DNA of 32,000 nt, from positions 570,001 to 602,000 of the forward strand of contig CP085695.1 of NCBI GenBank assembly GCA_029715105.1, written 5' to 3'. Shown one piece after another: positions 159 through 7,259 of the stretch. The first letter of the stretch is position 1. Every line of letters begins with the position of its first letter. The stretch is from Candidatus Saccharimonadota bacterium. GTDB lineage: Bacteria > Pseudomonadota > Alphaproteobacteria > Rickettsiales > Anaplasmataceae. The notes beneath the pieces were generated by a model. That model was not told where the DNA came from. It was given only the letters and a program-made list of their open reading frames with translations, and searched no databases. The position numbers were made by a program, and so were the translations under genes.

Positions 159-1151
159 TTAAGAATTTAAATCTGATAATCTGGTAAATAATATTTCAGA
201 AACATTTCTCTTTCCACAACTAGTTCTTTTTAATTGAACAACAATATCAATTACATTTCTAATGTATGGTACAATTTGATCCGGTAAAATACCAAGATTT
301 GCTTGCATAACCATAAGTTTTATTTGTTCAATAGCCATTTCTGGATTATCTGCATGAAGAGTCGATATCGAACCTGGATGACCAGTATTTACTGCTCTAA
401 GAAAACTAAAAGCTTCAACCCCACGTAACTCTCCAACTATTATTCTATCTGGTCTCAAACGTAAACATGCTTCTATCAAATCTTGAATTGTTACTTTTGC
501 CCTACCTTGTCCTCCCTTAGAAGCAATTAAATGCACTTTATTTGGGTGATCACTTAAAATAATTTCTCTTGTATCTTCAACAGTAATAATTCTCTCCTGA
601 GATGGAATAACACGTAAAATTGCATTAATAAAAGTAGTTTTACCAGTAGATGTTCCGCCGCTAATTATAATATTCTTTTTATTTATTAAAGCATATTCTA
701 AAAATTCCTTTATTCTTCTTTGTTTTAATAACAATCCAAGACGACGATCCACAGGATTACCAACTATTTCCACAACAGTTTTAGAAAAGGCTCCCATTTT
801 TTCGTAATCATCTAATGACAATCGGATACTAGAAGGTCTACGAATTGACATTATTACTTTATCAGATTCGCATGCTGGTGGAAATACTATCTGTATACGA
901 CACCCATTCGGCAATGTAGCTGAAAGCAAAGGTGTTTCTTCACTTAATCTTTGTTCTGTTGCTTGAGCAATTAATCTACCAAGAGATCTTAAATGATTAA
1001 AATCAAACACCTCTAATTTCTCGCATCTTATCTTACCTCGATTTTCAATCCATACTTCTCTAGGCCTATTTATTGATATTTCACTTACACCTTCCTCCTG
1101 AAAAAGCCCTTGTAATGGTTCTAAGTACGTATCTAGTGCAGCATACTTCAT
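159..1151 (-). CDS. virB11: Type IV secretion ATPase VirB11
   Basis: 330-aa ORF with Walker A GGTSTGKTT, an Asp/Glu box (IITVEDTREI) and the VirB11 His box (NTGHPGSISTLHA). It follows virB10. Confidence 0.95.
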   Translation of the reverse strand: MKYAALDTYLEPLQGLFQEEGVSEISINRPREVWIENRGKIRCEKLEVFDFNHLRSLGRLIAQATEQRLSEETPLLSATLPNGCRIQIVFPPACESDKVIMSIRRPSSIRLSLDDYEKMGAFSKTVVEIVGNPVDRRLGLLLKQRRIKEFLEYALINKKNIIISGGTSTGKTTFINAILRVIPSQERIITVEDTREIILSDHPNKVHLIASKGGQGRAKVTIQDLIEACLRLRPDRIIVGELRGVEAFSFLRAVNTGHPGSISTLHADNPEMAIEQIKLMVMQANLGILPDQIVPYIRNVIDIVVQLKRTSCGKRNVSEILFTRLSDLNS

Positions 1152-1170
1152 CTCTTCCCTTTCCTTCTTT

Positions 1171-2646
1171 TTACTTTAACACTGCTTGTAATGGAAATAT
1201 TATGTCTTGTTTAACAAAAACTTTCAACGCAGTACCTTGACTTATAAAAACAGTTATCTTTTTATCTATAGATCTATTAATTAAATCTCGCATATCTTTA
1301 GAAAAATCACCGATCAATCTATTGACAGCTTCATCATAAATAGATTTATTTTTTTTAAAAAATTGTTGCAATAGCTGGTTTATATTTTCTAAATTTATAT
1401 TTATCTCACCTTTCTCAATTTCTAACGCACTTGCTATTTCCTCTTTTATTATATTCAACAAATCTTTCTCATTTTTAGCGCTCTTAATTCTTCCAATAGC
1501 TTCAAAGTCCAATTTCCATTTATCACTAGGTATCTCTTTTCCTAGTTTAATAATATCTTTAAGTGAATAAAAATCTATTGCAGTTGCAGTAATAGATCTC
1601 ACCGCATCCATAAAAGTTAATGAGTCAACAAAATTAGAAACCTTTTGCCCTATAACAGATGATCCGATCGAAACTCCTGCAAGCAATATAGAAGAAAATA
1701 ACGCATTTGTTATCTTATTATCTACTATTCCAGTTATTCCGGCACTGCCAAGTTCATCAATACCAGATGATGAAATAGCAATGTCTATCCCATGAGGAAG
1801 AATAATCCTATTCCAATTTATATTTACACGAGCTTTCGTAATATTTGAATCAAATGAATAGCTACCTATCAATCTTGATCCTCTCGGTATTAAAACCGTA
1901 TCACCAGATTCTGCATAAACATTACTACTAACTATTGCACGTAACATTCCTTGCAAATCAGAATTTATTGCGGTTTCAAGAACTGCATCAATAATCTTAC
2001 CTTGAGTAATCATAAACCCAAGTTTTCCTACTTTCGTAGCTACATTCGGCTGCGCCGAAGTATTAAATAAAATAGTATCAACAACCTTGTCATTTTTAGG
2101 ATTATTTGAAATTACTAACATTTGTACACCACGTCTATCTTTAGGATAACCACTGTCACCTATTATAGGAAATGAATTTGATAAATCACTAGTAATAATA
2201 TTATTACCATGACGACTTTGCTTCGGTAAAGAAGGCGCATTTGTTGATACATATGTTTCTATTGGTTTTTCATCTCTTTTTTTTAATGAAACATCTTCTT
2301 TCTCAATTTGTTCCACTTCTGGTATTCCATGTGGAATAGGAAGAGGAGGCAAAGATGGCAGATCAGTTATTATCCTCTCATCATAAGTTATTACATCATC
2401 TGGCACATGTTCTAGTTTTCCTTTTAATTCTTGAATATTTTGCTCAATTTCCTCTTCTCTAAAAATTTTCACACTCTTCTCATCAGGGGATAAATTAAAA
2501 TAATAATACGTTATTACTCCACCAACCAGAAGTATAAAAATAATAACCACTAATACCCTATAACCTTGATTAGAACCAAATATTACTATCTTGCTCTCTA
2601 CTTCCGATTCATTCCTAGAATTATCAAGCTCTTCTTTACTCTTCAT
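1171..2646 (-). CDS. virB10: Type IV secretion protein VirB10
   Basis: 491 aa with an N-terminal TM helix, a Pro-rich linker (LPSLPPLPIPHGIPE) and a C-terminal TrbI/VirB10-like region (IPRGSRLIGSY...). It lies between virB9 and virB11. Confidence 0.9.
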   Translation of the reverse strand: MKSKEELDNSRNESEVESKIVIFGSNQGYRVLVVIIFILLVGGVITYYYFNLSPDEKSVKIFREEEIEQNIQELKGKLEHVPDDVITYDERIITDLPSLPPLPIPHGIPEVEQIEKEDVSLKKRDEKPIETYVSTNAPSLPKQSRHGNNIITSDLSNSFPIIGDSGYPKDRRGVQMLVISNNPKNDKVVDTILFNTSAQPNVATKVGKLGFMITQGKIIDAVLETAINSDLQGMLRAIVSSNVYAESGDTVLIPRGSRLIGSYSFDSNITKARVNINWNRIILPHGIDIAISSSGIDELGSAGITGIVDNKITNALFSSILLAGVSIGSSVIGQKVSNFVDSLTFMDAVRSITATAIDFYSLKDIIKLGKEIPSDKWKLDFEAIGRIKSAKNEKDLLNIIKEEIASALEIEKGEININLENINQLLQQFFKKNKSIYDEAVNRLIGDFSKDMRDLINRSIDKKITVFISQGTALKVFVKQDIIFPLQAVLK

Positions 2647-2678
2647 ATACTTTCTTCATTTTTATATATCCCAGGTAA

Positions 2679-3485
2679 CTAAAGCGATTTATTTATAATT
2701 TCAACTTCATTATCTTCGTAGCGCATAAACAATCTCTTATGAACCCCTTTTATTACAATATAACCGTCAAACAACAATCTCCTACAAGGTAATTTAATTT
2801 TACCTTCTCCTGCAAAAATCTGAGGTATTTTATCATTATCTATAAACTTAAAATAAGTTAAATAACCATCATCAAACAGTTCAATCGGAATCATACTAAT
2901 ATCAACACCATTATCAATATAAACATAATTATACTGTGTATCATTTTTTTGAATTAGACTTTCTGGTTTACTTGTAAAGTATTGCGTTTGAGTAAGCATT
3001 AATACTTCATCATCAATATCAAGCTCATCTTCTTCTCGGGGATAATGAAAACGCACTACATAAAATATATCTTTTTCACGGTAATGATTACTGTCTATCT
3101 TTTCAGTATTAGAATCCGAATATTTATCAGAATTTGGTTTTGAAATTAAATCAAAAATATAACTTCTTTTTTTAGTTGTTGTAATAATCATATTAGTACG
3201 TCCACTAACCTCAAACGGCATAATAAGTAATTTATTATCATAAGGACTAATATTCCAACTTGAAGCATCGCCAATAGCAATATTTTTTATTTTTTCTCCT
3301 TCTGCAAACTCAATATAAGAATAATAACCTTGACTAAAAACAACTTCAAAAATCTCATTGGGATTGTATACAAAAGTTTTTATTCTTTTATCTACGGAAG
3401 AAAACTTACTGTAATCAAATGATACAGTTAAATTACTGTGCAATAGTATGATAAAAATCAACAAAATTTTAAACATATTCATCAT
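2679..3485 (-). CDS. virB9: Type IV secretion protein VirB9, with a signal peptide
   Basis: 268 aa with an N-terminal signal-like segment (MMNMFKILLIFIILLHSNLTVS). Its size and its position between virB8 and virB10 fit VirB9, and its start overlaps the virB8 stop by 17 nt. Confidence 0.85.
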   Translation of the reverse strand: MMNMFKILLIFIILLHSNLTVSFDYSKFSSVDKRIKTFVYNPNEIFEVVFSQGYYSYIEFAEGEKIKNIAIGDASSWNISPYDNKLLIMPFEVSGRTNMIITTTKKRSYIFDLISKPNSDKYSDSNTEKIDSNHYREKDIFYVVRFHYPREEDELDIDDEVLMLTQTQYFTSKPESLIQKNDTQYNYVYIDNGVDISMIPIELFDDGYLTYFKFIDNDKIPQIFAGEGKIKLPCRRLLFDGYIVIKGVHKRLFMRYEDNEVEIINKSL

Positions 3486-4149
3486 CTACCCTATAAGAAG
3501 TAACTTGAAATCCTAATGGATTAACATATCTTTGTTGATCATTCATTTCAAGCGACACATATTTATAAGACATAATAGCTATTTTATTTCTCTTTACAGA
3601 ACTCCTATCTTTCCGTATAAATTCCACAGTAAACCTTATCTGAAAAGTATTATCATATAATCTCTGAATTGAACGAATCTTAAATTCACTTCTAACAAAA
3701 CCTGAGTATAGATTAAAAAGGTCATCAATATTTTGTGAATTTATATAATTTTTAAATTCACTATATACATTTGGTGAAGAAAATAATCTTACCTTTGTAT
3801 AATAATTATAATTATAATTATATTGGTCAAACACTTCTCTTGCTTTTATATACTCTGCAATGAAATGATTATTCAATACCTTATCTGCAGAATATAATTT
3901 TACTGTAACAGGATCAACTAACTGCACTATCCCAGATTTTTTCTCAATTTCTATAACAAACGGTTCAATAGTACTATTTGTACTAATTTTAAATATAACT
4001 AATATGCTTACAAAAACTATTACCAATAATACCAGTATAAATAAAAATAAAACGTTCCTTTGAGCGACAATTACGCTATAACGATCCGAATTCCAATTTG
4101 TATCCTCGTCTAATGCTCTACTATTCCTTTGTTTTAAAAATCTCAACAC
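3469..4149 (-). CDS. virB8: Type IV secretion protein VirB8 (intact copy)
   Basis: 226 aa with a GTG start, a short cytoplasmic tail plus a single TM (VLFLFILVLLVIVFVSILVIF), and a periplasmic domain of typical size. It is the first gene of the B8-B11 block. Confidence 0.85.
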   Translation of the reverse strand: MLRFLKQRNSRALDEDTNWNSDRYSVIVAQRNVLFLFILVLLVIVFVSILVIFKISTNSTIEPFVIEIEKKSGIVQLVDPVTVKLYSADKVLNNHFIAEYIKAREVFDQYNYNYNYYTKVRLFSSPNVYSEFKNYINSQNIDDLFNLYSGFVRSEFKIRSIQRLYDNTFQIRFTVEFIRKDRSSVKRNKIAIMSYKYVSLEMNDQQRYVNPLGFQVTSYRVDDEYV

Positions 4150-4207
4150 CTCGATTTTCTAAAATCCAAATCAACAACCAAACCCCTATATAAAATACAA
4201 ACTAAAT

Positions 4208-5296
4208 CTAAAAAACTTTTAATTTGTGACCTAGCTTAGCAAATTTTGTTTTCATATATGAACAATTATATTGATTAAACTCCATAACAAGCGGCAAACA
4301 CTTTGTAATCTCTATACCATTACTTTTTAACTCTGATAATTTTCTACCATTATTTGTAAGTAATTGAATCCTCTTAAGATCTAATTTTTTAAGTATTTTA
4401 GCTGCAATAACAAAATCCCTTTCATCATCCTTAAAACCCAACACTTTATTCGCATCTACAGTATCAAGATCATATCTTCTTTGCATATCATATGCCCTTA
4501 ATTTATTAATCAACCCAATACCCCTACCATCCTGCATGAGATATATTATGACACCACCTCCAGAATCAACCATTATTTGAATTGCTTTATGTAATTGACT
4601 TCTACAATCACACGATAAACTCCCCAACAAATCACCTGTGTAACATGAAGAATGTATTCTTACCAAAGGCTCACCATCTCTATTTGGATTACCAACAATA
4701 ATTGCATAATGTTCTCTGCAGCTACCACCTTTAATTCTATAAGATAGAATTTTTACTTCCTGAGTCTGCTTTAAAAAAAATGATGTTTCACATATTTCAT
4801 ATAAATCACGATCTAAACAAAAATTTTTTATAAACGATATATTCAGTGTAATAACATCATTTTTTTCACACCAATCATACATCTCTTTTTCATCTTTAAA
4901 AGATGAATCAATTATTAATGCATATGGTAATAACTCCGATAATTTAAGTAAATCAATAGCATATTTATCTATCACCCCTGAACAATACAGTTCTTTCATT
5001 CTATCGAAAACTGAATAATTCATTAAATGAAGCAACTCATCAAAACTATTTATCTGTAAACGTTTGTTATTATTTTTCTCGTTTTGAAACGAATATTGCA
5101 CCTTACTAGAAGTCAAAGTAACAAATAAATTACCTGATATAAACTTATACTGATCGAATAAACTTCTCTCTAAAATCTCAGCAGCAGTAAACAATAAATA
5201 ATTACCTTTATCATCATATATCATAACTGGAGAGCCACGTCTGACTTCACTAACTGCCCTATCTATTCTATTCCTGTTCTGATTTCCTATTAACAT
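4208..5296 (-). CDS. ribA: GTP cyclohydrolase II with an N-terminal RibB-like (apparently degenerate) domain, copy A
   Basis: The C-terminal half matches RibA motifs (RIHSSCYTGDLLGSLSCDCRSQL zinc/GTP site, QDGRGIGLINKLRAYDMQ, DERDF, LLTNN). The N-terminal ~170 aa resemble the start of DHBP synthase (RGSPVMIYDD) but lack the acidic REnEGD-type active-site stretch. Confidence 0.9.
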   Translation of the reverse strand: MLIGNQNRNRIDRAVSEVRRGSPVMIYDDKGNYLLFTAAEILERSLFDQYKFISGNLFVTLTSSKVQYSFQNEKNNNKRLQINSFDELLHLMNYSVFDRMKELYCSGVIDKYAIDLLKLSELLPYALIIDSSFKDEKEMYDWCEKNDVITLNISFIKNFCLDRDLYEICETSFFLKQTQEVKILSYRIKGGSCREHYAIIVGNPNRDGEPLVRIHSSCYTGDLLGSLSCDCRSQLHKAIQIMVDSGGGVIIYLMQDGRGIGLINKLRAYDMQRRYDLDTVDANKVLGFKDDERDFVIAAKILKKLDLKRIQLLTNNGRKLSELKSNGIEITKCLPLVMEFNQYNCSYMKTKFAKLGHKLKVF

Positions 5297-5324
5297 TTCA
5301 CTTATATTAAATGAATAAATCTGA

Positions 5325-5413
5325 TACGGTCGAGAAGACTTGAACTTCCAAAGCCAAATTTAGGGCCACAGCGACCTCAACGCTGCATGTCTACCAAATT
5401 CCATCACGACCGC
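5325..5413 (-). tRNA. tRNA-Leu, anticodon GAG, class II with long variable arm, copy A
   Basis: Folded by hand from the reverse complement GCGGTCG-TG-ATG-GAATTTGGTAGA-CAT-G-CAGCG-TTGAGGT-CGCTG-(19-nt variable arm TGGCCCTAAATTTGGCTTT)-GGAAG-TTCAAGT-CTTCT-CGACCGT-A. It has a 7-bp acceptor stem (G1:U72 wobble), U33, G37, a TTCAAGT T-loop and discriminator A73. CCA is not encoded. Confidence 0.9.
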
Positions 5414-5440
5414 ACTTTTAAACTTAAATCGCACTCAACC

Positions 5441-5469
5441 ATTTTAAAATTCTTTACCTAAAATGTCAA
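5441..5469 (-). promoter_or_regulatory. Sigma-70-like promoter TTGACA-N17-TAAAAT reading into tRNA-Leu copy A, ribA and virB8
   Basis: On the minus strand, TTGACA lies at 5469-5464, followed by a 17-nt spacer and TAAAAT at 5446-5441. The -10 element ends 27 nt upstream of the mature tRNA 5' end. AT-rich background raises the false-positive risk. Confidence 0.45.
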
Positions 5470-5533
5470 TTCTTATATAACTTGGAATAATTTATAAATT
5501 GTTTTATAAATCCTTTATAATACTTATATAATA

Positions 5534-5562
5534 TTGACATATAGAGATAGTTTTCTTATCTA
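5534..5562 (+). promoter_or_regulatory. Duplicated copy of the plus-strand promoter, with a weakened -10 (TTGACA-N17-TATCTA)
   Basis: Same element as 7112-7140, but position 5560 is C instead of A. It points antisense into the virB8 remnant and ribA copy B. Confidence 0.2.
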
Positions 5563-5727
5563 AGAATAGATACCGTGTAATATGCTTACAAAAAGTATTA
5601 CCAATAATACCAGTATAAATAAAAATAAAACGTTCCTTTGAGCGACAATTACGCTATAACGATCCGAATTCCAATTTGTATCCTCGTCTAATGCTCTACT
5701 ATTCCTTTGTTTTAAAAATCTCAACAC
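5560..5727 (-). pseudogene. virB8: Truncated virB8 remnant: 50 N-terminal codons plus a 5-codon novel tail (HGIYS) and TAG
   Basis: Hand translation from the GTG at 5727: MLRFLKQRNSRALDEDTNWNSDRYSVIVAQRNVLFLFILVLLVILFVSILHGIYS*. It is identical to virB8 codons 1-50 except V45L (5595 G versus 4017 C). It keeps the same upstream spacer as the intact gene, and the frame leaves virB8 sequence at the duplication junction. Confidence 0.85.
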
Positions 5728-5785
5728 CTCGATTTTCTAAAATCCAAATCAACAACCAAACCCCTATATAAAATACAAACTAAAT

Positions 5786-6874
5786 CTAAAAAACTTTTAA
5801 TTTGTGACCTAGCTTAGCAAATTTTGTTTTCATATATGAACAATTATATTGATTAAACTCCATAACAAGCGGCAAACACTTTGTAATCTCTATACCATTA
5901 CTTTTTAACTCTGATAATTTTCTACCATTATTTGTAAGTAATTGAATCCTCTTAAGATCTAATTTTTTAAGTATTTTAGCTGCAATAACAAAATCCCTTT
6001 CATCATCCTTAAAACCCAACACTTTATTCGCATCTACAGTATCAAGATCATATCTTCTTTGCATATCATATGCCCTTAATTTATTAATCAACCCAATACC
6101 CCTACCATCCTGCATGAGATATATTATGACACCACCTCCAGAATCAACCATTATTTGAATTGCTTTATGTAATTGACTTCTACAATCACACGATAAACTC
6201 CCCAACAAATCACCTGTGTAACATGAAGAATGTATTCTTACCAAAGGCTCACCATCTCTATTTGGATTACCAACAATAATTGCATAATGTTCTCTGCAGC
6301 TACCACCTTTAATTCTATAAGATAGAATTTTTACTTCCTGAGTCTGCTTTAAAAAAAATGATGTTTCACATATTTCATATAAATCACGATCTAAACAAAA
6401 ATTTTTTATAAACGATATATTCAGTGTAATAACATCATTTTTTTCACACCAATCATACATCTCTTTTTCATCTTTAAAAGATGAATCAATTATTAATGCA
6501 TATGGTAATAACTCCGATAATTTAAGTAAATCAATAGCATATTTATCTATCACCCCTGAACAATACAGTTCTTTCATTCTATCGAAAACTGAATAATTCA
6601 TTAAATGAAGCAACTCATCAAAACTATTTATCTGTAAACGTTTGTTATTATTTTTCTCGTTTTGAAACGAATATTGCACCTTACTAGAAGTCAAAGTAAC
6701 AAATAAATTACCTGATATAAACTTATACTGATCGAATAAACTTCTCTCTAAAATCTCAGCAGCAGTAAACAATAAATAATTACCTTTATCATCATATATC
6801 ATAACTGGAGAGCCACGTCTGACTTCACTAACTGCCCTATCTATTCTATTCCTGTTCTGATTTCCTATTAACAT
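5786..6874 (-). CDS. ribA: GTP cyclohydrolase II (RibB-like N-terminal domain), copy B, identical to copy A
   Basis: The ORF-track protein is identical to 4208-5296. By visual comparison at an offset of 1578 nt, the DNA is also identical. Confidence 0.9.
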   Translation of the reverse strand: MLIGNQNRNRIDRAVSEVRRGSPVMIYDDKGNYLLFTAAEILERSLFDQYKFISGNLFVTLTSSKVQYSFQNEKNNNKRLQINSFDELLHLMNYSVFDRMKELYCSGVIDKYAIDLLKLSELLPYALIIDSSFKDEKEMYDWCEKNDVITLNISFIKNFCLDRDLYEICETSFFLKQTQEVKILSYRIKGGSCREHYAIIVGNPNRDGEPLVRIHSSCYTGDLLGSLSCDCRSQLHKAIQIMVDSGGGVIIYLMQDGRGIGLINKLRAYDMQRRYDLDTVDANKVLGFKDDERDFVIAAKILKKLDLKRIQLLTNNGRKLSELKSNGIEITKCLPLVMEFNQYNCSYMKTKFAKLGHKLKVF

Positions 6875-6902
6875 TTCACTTATATTAAATGAATAAATCT
6901 GA

Positions 6903-6991
6903 TACGGTCGAGAAGACTTGAACTTCCAAAGCCAAATTTAGGGCCACAGCGACCTCAACGCTGCATGTCTACCAAATTCCATCACGACCGC
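6903..6991 (-). tRNA. tRNA-Leu, anticodon GAG, copy B
   Basis: Identical 89-nt sequence to 5325-5413, offset by 1578 nt. Confidence 0.9.
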
Positions 6992-7018
6992 ACTTTTAAA
7001 CTTAAATCGCACTCAACC

Positions 7019-7047
7019 ATTTTAAAATTCTTTACCTAAAATGTCAA
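7019..7047 (-). promoter_or_regulatory. Sigma-70-like promoter TTGACA-N17-TAAAAT reading into tRNA-Leu copy B and ribA copy B
   Basis: Identical copy of 5441-5469: TTGACA at 7047-7042 and TAAAAT at 7024-7019 on the minus strand. Confidence 0.45.
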
Positions 7048-7111
7048 TTCTTATATAACTTGGAATAATTTATAAATTGTTTTATAAATCCTTTATAATA
7101 CTTATATAATA

Positions 7112-7140
7112 TTGACATATAGAGATAGTTTTCTTATATA
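7112..7140 (+). promoter_or_regulatory. Sigma-70-like promoter TTGACA-N17-TATATA reading toward the metallophosphoesterase gene
   Basis: TTGACA at 7112-7117, a 17-nt spacer and TATATA at 7135-7140, 120 nt upstream of the ATG at 7260. It is divergent from the tRNA promoter. Confidence 0.35.
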
Positions 7141-7259
7141 AGAATAGATACCGTATATTATATTAAATTAAGGTAGGACAAAATTAAGTTTTAGAAAATT
7201 AAAAGCTCAACTTAAAATACTTCAATTGTTTAAGCTCAGAGCCTCCTCTATTTCTAATT

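Follow-up and report, generated by a model that had tools for sequence, protein, structure and literature searches.

A 1,578-nt tandem repeat of the promoter-tRNA-Leu(GAG)-ribA module upstream of virB8 in the published chromosome of Wolbachia wMeur1

Does the chromosome of Wolbachia wMeur1, a symbiont of the louse Menacanthus eurysternus, carry its riboflavin gene ribA twice, and if so, how did the second copy arise and what might it do? The question is raised by a stretch of 32,000 nucleotides of the GenBank sequence CP085695 (genome positions 570,001-602,000; in the following "the window", to which positions refer unless stated otherwise). Within the window, a segment that carries a promoter, a gene for transfer RNA (tRNA)-Leu(GAG), ribA (encoding GTP cyclohydrolase II) and the 5' end of virB8 is present twice, directly ahead of a type IV secretion operon; on CP085695 the pair occupies about 574,000-577,155. 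We consider it probable that this is a real, lineage-specific and homology-independent tandem duplication of the promoter-tRNA-Leu-ribA module in wMeur1.

The repeat itself is unambiguous in the published sequence. When the window is compared with itself at an offset of 1578 nt, positions 4000-5577 equal positions 5578-7155 as direct, abutting copies, and a repeat search of the window seeded the same pair at the same spacing; Tandem Repeats Finder, whose longest period is 500, missed it. The units differ internally by two substitutions (4017C/5595G and 5560C/7138A), and their final bases are 5577G and 7155A (C at 3999, on the left flank). The match extends for another 2 nt beyond the unit, with TA at 4000-4001, 5578-5579 and 7156-7157. 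Exactly two copies are present, and the comparison at this offset contains no partial third. A match of 1.58 kb at more than 99.8% identity excludes a chance origin. A preliminary description of the stretch had reported a near-identical 1,578-bp head-to-tail duplication with two substitutions and 2.0 copies and had suggested a self-comparison; the latter confirms the repeat and adds the mismatch at the boundary base.

Each unit begins with the first 150 nt of virB8 (4000-4149). A spacer of 58 nt separates these from ribA (362 aa), beyond which come a second, short spacer, the tRNA-Leu(GAG) gene and about 163 nt of upstream DNA. The predicted open reading frames (ORFs), Pfam and ARAGORN agree with the contents first described (virB8 5' part, spacer, 362-codon ribA, tRNA and upstream DNA). 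The product of the event is two complete promoter-tRNA-Leu(GAG)-ribA modules in series, both upstream of virB8-virB9-virB10-virB11, while the intact virB8-B11 operon keeps its adjoining 1.58 kb of upstream context unaltered.

Both ribA genes encode the same full-length protein. RibA covers positions 13-164 of the 165 positions of PF00925 (E = 2.5e-49) and scores 206.9 bits against the NCBIfam RibA subfamily model NF001591 (cut-off 148). It keeps every residue that is invariant across 16 aligned Wolbachia RibA sequences, including C218, C229 and C231, which we take to be the zinc-binding cysteines; the conservation of its motifs HSSCYTGD and YLMQDGRG suffices for their use as scan patterns, and its matches in the PDB are 4rl4 and 2bz0. 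GenBank lists two entries, WFW29606.1 and WFW29607.1, for the one RibA sequence, directly after VirB8 (WFW29605.1). Residues 1-179 (window 4760-5296) reach 11 bits against the DHBP-synthase family PF00926 (cut-off 26.4, E = 0.3), and RibA stays far under every cut-off of the NCBIfam models for bifunctional RibBA; judged by these profiles, the label "bifunctional" RibBA given by Prokka, RAST and the paper on the Wolbachia strain wBm (PMC3518464) looks doubtful.

At its end, the upstream module leaves a truncated virB8 of 55 codons. In this ORF, residues 1-50 of VirB8, which form the cytoplasmic tail and transmembrane helix and include the change V45L, are followed by the junction-encoded HGIYS and a stop; the stump has no Pfam match and is absent as a protein from the public collection. 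The consequences foreseen in the preliminary description, a doubled ribA and tRNA and a truncated virB8 ORF, are thus present in the sequence, and the tRNA/ribA promoter is doubled along with them.

The tRNA-Leu (anticodon gag) measures 89 nt without CCA and 92 nt (5323-5414 and 6901-6992) according to ARAGORN. Both copies score 91.8 bits over the full length (positions 1-88) of a covariance model purpose-built from 28 Anaplasmataceae orthologues, on which relatives score 103-115 bits; by this measure the wMeur1 tRNA is the most diverged member, yet intact. Relative to the orthologues, it has a G1-U72 pair and, by compensation, A10 paired with U25; its D loop has one more U, its variable arm is longer, and AUCA replaces the encoded ACCA. 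The Rfam model RF00005 matches neither copy, even at E <= 1, and gives 47.7 bits for the wPaur orthologue. The Rfam scan that missed both tRNAs also found no FMN riboswitch or other Rfam element in the unit.

The best promoter-like site of the region, TTGACA-17-TAAAAT (11/12 consensus positions), lies upstream of the tRNA in both units. The alignment shows it, as TTGACA(C)-17-TAAAAT, in 26/26 other Wolbachia loci, and a strict pattern places it at -72..-43 from the tRNA in most of them. A consensus-like site directed towards the neighbouring phosphoesterase gene occurs at 5503-5532 and 7081-7110; it was rejected as a duplicated promoter, being not conserved in relatives, and the unit does not include the conserved block that adjoins the phosphoesterase gene. 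In the divergent promoter pair first described, the tRNA/ribA-directed member is therefore conserved and duplicated, and the phosphoesterase-directed member drops out.

The wMeur1 promoter region differs from that of its relatives in one respect. The activators wBmxR1 and wBmxR2 bind the ribA promoter of wBm at a minimal site of 20 nt, TATATAAAAACTAGAATAAA (Li & Carlow 2012, PMC3518464). In our alignment this site falls between the -10 box and the tRNA and is found with 0-3 mismatches in 19/26 Wolbachia loci (for comparison, L038:1744-1763 and L004:4086-4105). In wMeur1 a deletion of 17 nt takes it out: the window holds no match when up to 3 mismatches are allowed, and upstream of the tRNA the closest sequence differs at 7/20 positions. 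wMeur1 still has one wBmxR1 homologue. Because the site is deleted, both modules probably fire without input from wBmxR1/R2. The site is also degraded in wMmer (L020) and at the divergent loci L022, L023 and L025. The wBm paper (PMC3518464) is silent on the binding site abutting a tRNA gene.

The identity of the organism is clear from RibA, which is 100% identical to that of wMeur1, 72% to the next-best relatives, supergroup F Wolbachia, and 41% to Ehrlichia ruminantium; the suggestion of an E. ruminantium-like organism in the preliminary description is therefore abandoned. The wMeur1 genome (CP085695; Rihova et al. 2023, PMC9903615) comprises 733,850 bp at 28% GC, with 0 transposases, no phage genes and no mobile elements, and has lost most recombination and repair genes; none of RecA, RuvA, RecF and MutS is annotated among the entries listed in the authors' tables. 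The symbiont lives in bacteriocytes and has kept riboflavin as its sole ancestral B-vitamin pathway, while its pantothenate genes were acquired horizontally (PMC9903615).

To place the duplication among relatives, we used a scan of species-representative genomes with the Wolbachia RibA alignment, which yielded 79 loci, wMeur1 not among them. The 26 other Wolbachia loci all hold phosphoesterase(-), tRNA-Leu(GAG), ribA, virB8, virB9, virB10 and virB11 once each (tblastn, ARAGORN), save that the phosphoesterase gene went undetected at one of them (L008), and the window keeps the same order. At the other Anaplasmataceae loci examined for tRNAs (including Mesenet, Neoehrlichia, Anaplasma and Ehrlichia) a tRNA directly precedes ribA, and nearly all of those checked have single-copy virB8-B11 downstream of ribA. 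Since the module is single-copy at all 26 Wolbachia loci, none of which has a direct repeat there, the duplication is, as judged from these orthologous ribA-virB8 loci (a comparison likewise suggested beforehand), specific to the wMeur1 lineage. At one further locus, that of Anaplasma phagocytophilum str. Webster (L029), the 3' three-quarters of ribA recurs as an inverted copy of 927 bp (10143-11069 versus 7278-6352, 99.9% identity), at a distance of about 2.9 kb on the upstream side of the complete gene, and virB8-B11 are missing downstream of ribA; the ribA region has thus been duplicated independently elsewhere in the Anaplasmataceae.

The duplication has in fact been in print, under another name. 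Item 14 of the 17 in the authors' Pseudofinder table, 574207-576874 (-), comprises the Prokka genes 00489 and 00491, both labelled "RibBA", and its coordinates result when 570,000 is added to those of both ribA genes in the window. The duplication was therefore part of the authors' final sequence and of both their gene-calling outputs, where it was scored as one fragmented pseudogene; both copies are actually full-length. Pseudofinder merges neighbouring ORFs that match one reference protein, which would account for the call. Neither the source paper (PMC9903615) nor the other literature searched discusses a ribA duplication.

How could such a structure arise? The unit holds no transposase or integrase, all its ORFs of at least 40 aa being accounted for by the ORF list and Pfam (ribA, the virB8 stump and no other ORF of that length with a family match). 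No terminal inverted repeats pair the unit ends, and no flanking direct repeat longer than 2 nt occurs at the unit boundaries. As the genome is, moreover, reported to be without mobile elements, the duplication is not a mobile element, and the ORF, Pfam and inverted-repeat checks agree with the earlier statement that transposase, integrase and terminal inverted repeats are missing. A variable repeat driven by mobile elements or recombination, as in E. ruminantium, or an amplification flanked by insertion sequences or repeats, as for the Octomom region of Wolbachia, is very improbable here. The likeness is superficial (an AT-rich Anaplasmataceae genome, ribA-virB8 synteny with E. ruminantium locus L035, a truncated fragment at the repeat end), whereas the genome is that of Wolbachia wMeur1, L035 and L044 of E. 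ruminantium are single-copy, and the features by which such repeats move or recombine are missing from the unit, from its flanks and, as reported, from a genome with a depleted set of recombination genes.

The microhomology of 2 nt (TA), together with the lack of transposase and terminal inverted repeats, fits a RecA-independent illegitimate event. A single homology-independent join would have connected virB8, within codon 50, to the spacer between the phosphoesterase gene and the tRNA, the likely route being replication slippage or template switching at the TA; just past the breakpoints 7/12 bases match, against a background mean of 3.6 (P = 0.04). Of the two routes considered in the preliminary description, unequal recombination or slippage, the breakpoints favour the slippage or illegitimate one, which is the best fit. 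Once formed, the duplication would be comparatively stable rather than "actively variable", because wMeur1 reportedly lacks most recombination genes. Ongoing homogenisation or an actively variable copy number, as first proposed, finds no support in a genome reported without most recombination genes and without mobile elements. In Escherichia coli, deletion of recA freezes the copy number of tandem ribA arrays (PMC11111574).

The differences between the copies bear on the age of the event and, as discussed further below, on its reality. None of the three is more than 18 nt away from the central junction, a pattern that had gone unremarked. A distance of 17-18 nt separates each of the two internal substitutions from a unit end, and no others occur in the rest of the unit (~1,540 nt), a clustering that under uniform placement has P = (36/1578)^2 = 5e-4. 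The base 5577G is unlike either parent sequence. The outer copy contains an intact 15-nt inverted repeat (7044-7058 / 7134-7148) that is broken by 5560C, so that the junction-side alleles look derived, and we take this to suggest that the junction-side allele is the derived one. At 4017/5595, where the full VirB8 has V, the stump L and relatives I, outgroups do not assign a polarity. We also considered a quasi-palindromic, hairpin-templated origin of the variants, in which 5577G and 5595G extend a GTAATA/TATTAC stem; it was rejected, as 5595G gives only a G-T pair and 5560C is partnerless.

Three readings of the clustering are possible: error-prone synthesis at the fresh junction, with which 5577G and the derived-looking junction alleles are consistent; divergence along the whole unit that was collapsed by the de Bruijn assembler, boundary-phased variants surviving; or a junction built out of poor chimeric reads. 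The default largest k of metaSPAdes is 55. The second reading would make the duplication real and older, its interior divergence collapsed by bubble popping and one consensus written twice, and the position of both internal substitutions close to the unit end is the pattern predicted for metaSPAdes. The same clustering is, however, predicted by error-prone junction synthesis and by an artefact, 5577G looks more like a junction event than later drift in that it matches neither parent, and 5560C points to derived alleles on the junction side; we give an older duplication some weight, while thinking it unlikely. Near-zero divergence as a sign of a very recent event, the conclusion drawn at first sight, is unsafe in any case, as de Bruijn assembly of short reads is unable to preserve variants of a single copy deep inside a 1.5-kb repeat.

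Several points weigh against a real duplication and should be stated together. CP085695 is a metaSPAdes assembly of 2x251-nt reads (BioProject PRJNA768995; PMC9903615), and in its assembly graph a 1.58-kb tandem repeat is a loop longer than any read, so that its existence rests on junction k-mers and its copy number on the loop resolution of the assembler. The differences within 18 nt of the junction would also be expected from a few error-bearing chimeric reads. The Illumina assembly and an independent Nanopore assembly are only 98% identical, and 1.6 kb could hide among the indels. The authors' eggNOG table has one wMeur1 entry for GTP cyclohydrolase II, against two for RibBA in Prokka and Pseudofinder, perhaps because identical names or sequences were merged. 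In the collections searched, which hold one wMeur1 assembly only, neither another isolate nor a read set or separate contig with the junction was reached. A 33-mer across the junction has no match in the JGI metagenomes, exact-protein look-ups of RibA and of the 55-aa stump for other contigs or read assemblies returned nothing on record, and the RibA protein cluster holds the GenBank record only, with no read-derived (Logan) copy.

On these grounds one could suppose that there is a single real unit, that a few chimeric or erroneous reads made a back-edge, and that metaSPAdes went round the loop twice. A unit of 1578 nt exceeding any read, the three junction bases within 36 nt (said to match neither parent and resembling a poor chimeric read) and the single eggNOG entry would all suit this, yet we hold an assembly artefact to be quite unlikely. 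The breakpoints are clean and carry the TA microhomology. Assemblers of the SPAdes type normally drop low-coverage chimeric edges in deeply covered genomes and derive the copy number of a loop from coverage, so that a false loop presupposes a unit covered at twice the depth of its flanks. The ends of the Illumina contig and its manual closure (aTRAM and polymerase chain reaction (PCR), 993 bp) lie at the split 16S ribosomal RNA (rRNA) gene, not at the ribA locus (PMC9903615), which also rules out an overlap left untrimmed between the ends of a circular contig, an origin considered since the errors cluster as they would at such an end; in the window, where the Rfam scan gave no match of any kind and missed both tRNAs, too, no rRNA was detected. 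The contig had 732,857 bp before the 993-bp closure, an arithmetic that is uninformative with respect to a unit of 1578 bp. The Nanopore assembly (Flye, racon, medaka; mean read length 7.7 kb), made from a different, fresh louse, is colinear and at 734,125 bp is 275 bp longer (PMC9903615), not about 1.6 kb shorter. This agreement in length is no more than suggestive support for the duplication, and one copy or three would still be conceivable. Overall, we are fairly confident that the duplication is real.

If the duplication is real, the template dose would be doubled for GTP cyclohydrolase II, which catalyses the first committed step of riboflavin synthesis, and for tRNA-Leu(GAG), the reader of CUU and CUC, each ribA copy being driven by its own copy of the promoter conserved in Wolbachia. 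Since no intrinsic terminator is predicted within the unit, transcription that starts at the upstream module probably continues across the downstream one and on into the secretion operon. These consequences for expression are inferred from sequence alone, which counts as a further point against the interpretation. No special demand for the tRNA is apparent: CUU and CUC make up 24% of the Leu codons in the genes of the window, an unremarkable share.

It is possible, if doubtful, that we are looking at a selected dosage amplification, in which a louse on a vitamin-poor diet gains riboflavin from two promoter-ribA modules that raise the rate-limiting enzyme. The unit boundaries enclose the whole promoter-tRNA-ribA module, and the pathway concerned is the sole ancestral B-vitamin pathway kept by the bacteriocyte-dwelling wMeur1. 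The 20-nt binding site of wBmxR1/R2, which act as activators of this promoter in wBm, has been deleted, ribA copy number lifts the riboflavin yield of E. coli (PMC11111574), and riboflavin supplied by Wolbachia betters the fitness of bedbugs (PMC4659472). Against selection, the argument rests on one genome, any random duplication of 1.6 kb must hold something, and the other rib genes are not duplicated in the window; the virB8 stump and the tRNA were dragged along, which points to accident over design, and a lowered promoter output after loss of the activator site is an assumption for wMeur1. A dosage compensation for the lost activator site is tempting and unproven. The full sequence of events, in which the activator site and, apparently, RecA-dependent recombination were lost and a second module became fixed as a stable, selected amplification that raises riboflavin flux for the louse, we regard as unlikely.

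The coordinates of the locus are collected in Table 1. The genes virB9, virB10 and virB11 (159..3485) form the remainder of the type IV secretion operon, with synteny as in all relatives.

Table 1. Features of the duplicated ribA locus and its neighbours (positions in the window)
Feature	Position	Strand	Evidence and remarks
Duplication unit 1	4000..5577	.	virB-operon side; runs seamlessly onto the remainder of virB8; identity at offset 1578
Duplication unit 2	5578..7155	.	phosphoesterase-gene side; identity at offset 1578
Novel junction, between 5577 and 5578	5560..5595	.	variant bases 5560C, 5577G and 5595G; TA microhomology at 5578-5579
Junction sequence		+	GATACCGTGTAATATGC (5' to 3')
Junction halves			AGATACCGTG then TAATATGCTTACAAAAAG, joined at the breakpoint
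ribA copy 1, GTP cyclohydrolase II, 362 aa, intact	4208..5296	-	Pfam GTP_cyclohydro2, E = 2.5e-49
ribA copy 2, product identical to copy 1	5786..6874	-	ORF translation
tRNA-Leu(GAG) copy 1	about 5322-5413	-	ARAGORN, covariance model
tRNA-Leu(GAG) copy 2	about 6900-6991	-	ARAGORN, covariance model
Predicted sigma-70-type promoter TTGACA-17-TAAAAT, copy 1	5441..5469	-	upstream of tRNA-Leu/ribA; 11/12 consensus
Predicted sigma-70-type promoter TTGACA-17-TAAAAT, copy 2	7019..7047	-	as copy 1
Shortened promoter-tRNA spacer	5414-5440, 6992-7018	-	17-nt deletion relative to other Wolbachia (alignment)
Full-length virB8, 226 aa	3469..4149	-	first 150 nt inside unit 1; Pfam VirB8, E = 4e-52; WFW29605.1
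Truncated virB8 stump, 55 codons	5560..5727	-	end of upstream module; ORF and alignment
virB9	2679-3485	-	Pfam CagX; single copy
virB10	1171-2646	-	Pfam TrbI; single copy
virB11	159-1151	-	Pfam T2SSE; single copy
Calcineurin-like phosphoesterase gene	7260..8507	+	divergent, conserved upstream neighbour outside the duplication; Pfam Metallophos, synteny

Elsewhere in the window, purA (adenylosuccinate synthetase, 12037-13308, -) is split into ORFs of 318 aa (profile positions 1-313) and 97 aa (322-416), in agreement with the published pseudogene 15 (582036-582330). An ORF of 256 aa resembling glutamine synthetase (10432-11202, +) covers the middle of the catalytic domain only (Pfam positions 94-278 of 344) and scores 83 bits against NCBIfam GlnA (cut-off 429 bits); it is absent from the published list of 17 pseudogenes and is probably a gene remnant. 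A 249-aa ORF upstream of glyQ (15027-15776, +) has no Pfam or NCBIfam match. A degenerate tandem repeat of 24 nt (30707-30787; 3.2 copies, 61% matches) lies at the 3' end of a yajC-like ORF (30366-30794).

The wMeur1 genome has been described as static, with no mobile elements and few recombination genes (PMC9903615). If the duplication is real, genomes of this kind can still grow by illegitimate duplication, item 14 among the 17 published pseudogenes stands for two intact ribA genes, so that the count has to be corrected, and a link between gene dosage and riboflavin supply in the louse symbiosis becomes testable. If it is an artefact, the "complete" reference CP085695 carries 1.6 kb of false sequence with a spurious extra tRNA and gene. 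The ribA locus would also be a convenient PCR marker for structural variation among wMeur1 populations, which span four continents. On the strength of its acquired pantothenate genes, wMeur1 has been proposed to be the first Wolbachia of insects that has fully become an obligate nutritional mutualist (PMC9903615). Should the amplification prove to be selected, it would be the first chromosomal amplification of a nutrient gene described in Wolbachia, and riboflavin, not only the horizontally acquired pantothenate pathway, would underlie the louse mutualism.

With respect to known systems, the gene order and orientation of the locus are those of the ribA-virB8-virB9-virB10-virB11-virD4 locus common to Wolbachia and other Anaplasmataceae, including the phosphoesterase gene and dnaA upstream (Rances et al. 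2008; Li & Carlow 2012, PMC3518464; Moriyama et al. 2015, PMC4659472). Other Wolbachia share the tRNA-Leu(GAG) about 30 nt upstream of ribA and the promoter at -72..-43, whereas only in wMeur1 is the promoter-tRNA-ribA-virB8' segment doubled and the 17-nt segment of the wBmxR1/R2 site cleanly deleted. As to repeats of this kind, Buchnera, in work by Lai, Baumann and Baumann from 1994, reportedly carries tandem trpEG repeats and leuABCD plasmids. The wMeur1 units resemble the trpEG case in that the repeats are head to tail, each with a complete gene for a first committed or rate-limiting step (in wMeur1 intact and with its own promoter), in an obligate bacteriocyte symbiont with a reduced genome; in contrast to Buchnera, the wMeur1 duplication is chromosomal and not on a plasmid, has two copies versus 4-16, and includes a tRNA and a fragment of a secretion gene. 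The Octomom amplification of Wolbachia wMelPop, of which Chrostek and Teixeira are said to have written in 2015, is likewise a tandem change in copy number of a chromosomal Wolbachia segment with a presumed dosage phenotype. Octomom, however, is about 20 kb long, repeat-flanked and demonstrably variable in copy number, and resides in a recombination-proficient genome rich in mobile elements, whereas the wMeur1 unit has 1.58 kb, no flanking repeats and a genome without mobile elements. The actively variable tandem repeats of E. ruminantium, reportedly described by Collins et al. in 2005 and by Frutos et al. in 2006, resemble the wMeur1 case in that an AT-rich Anaplasmataceae genome holds a tandem duplication with a truncated gene fragment left over; they belong to another genus, and the two genomes sampled here (L035, L044) hold a single ribA/tRNA-Leu unit. 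A similar unit size, with a promoter and ribA per unit, is found in tandem ribA arrays of E. coli (1.4 kb), in which riboflavin output tracks ribA copy number and three copies give a 3.5-fold output (PMC11111574). Those arrays were engineered and drug-selected, while the wMeur1 duplication is natural.

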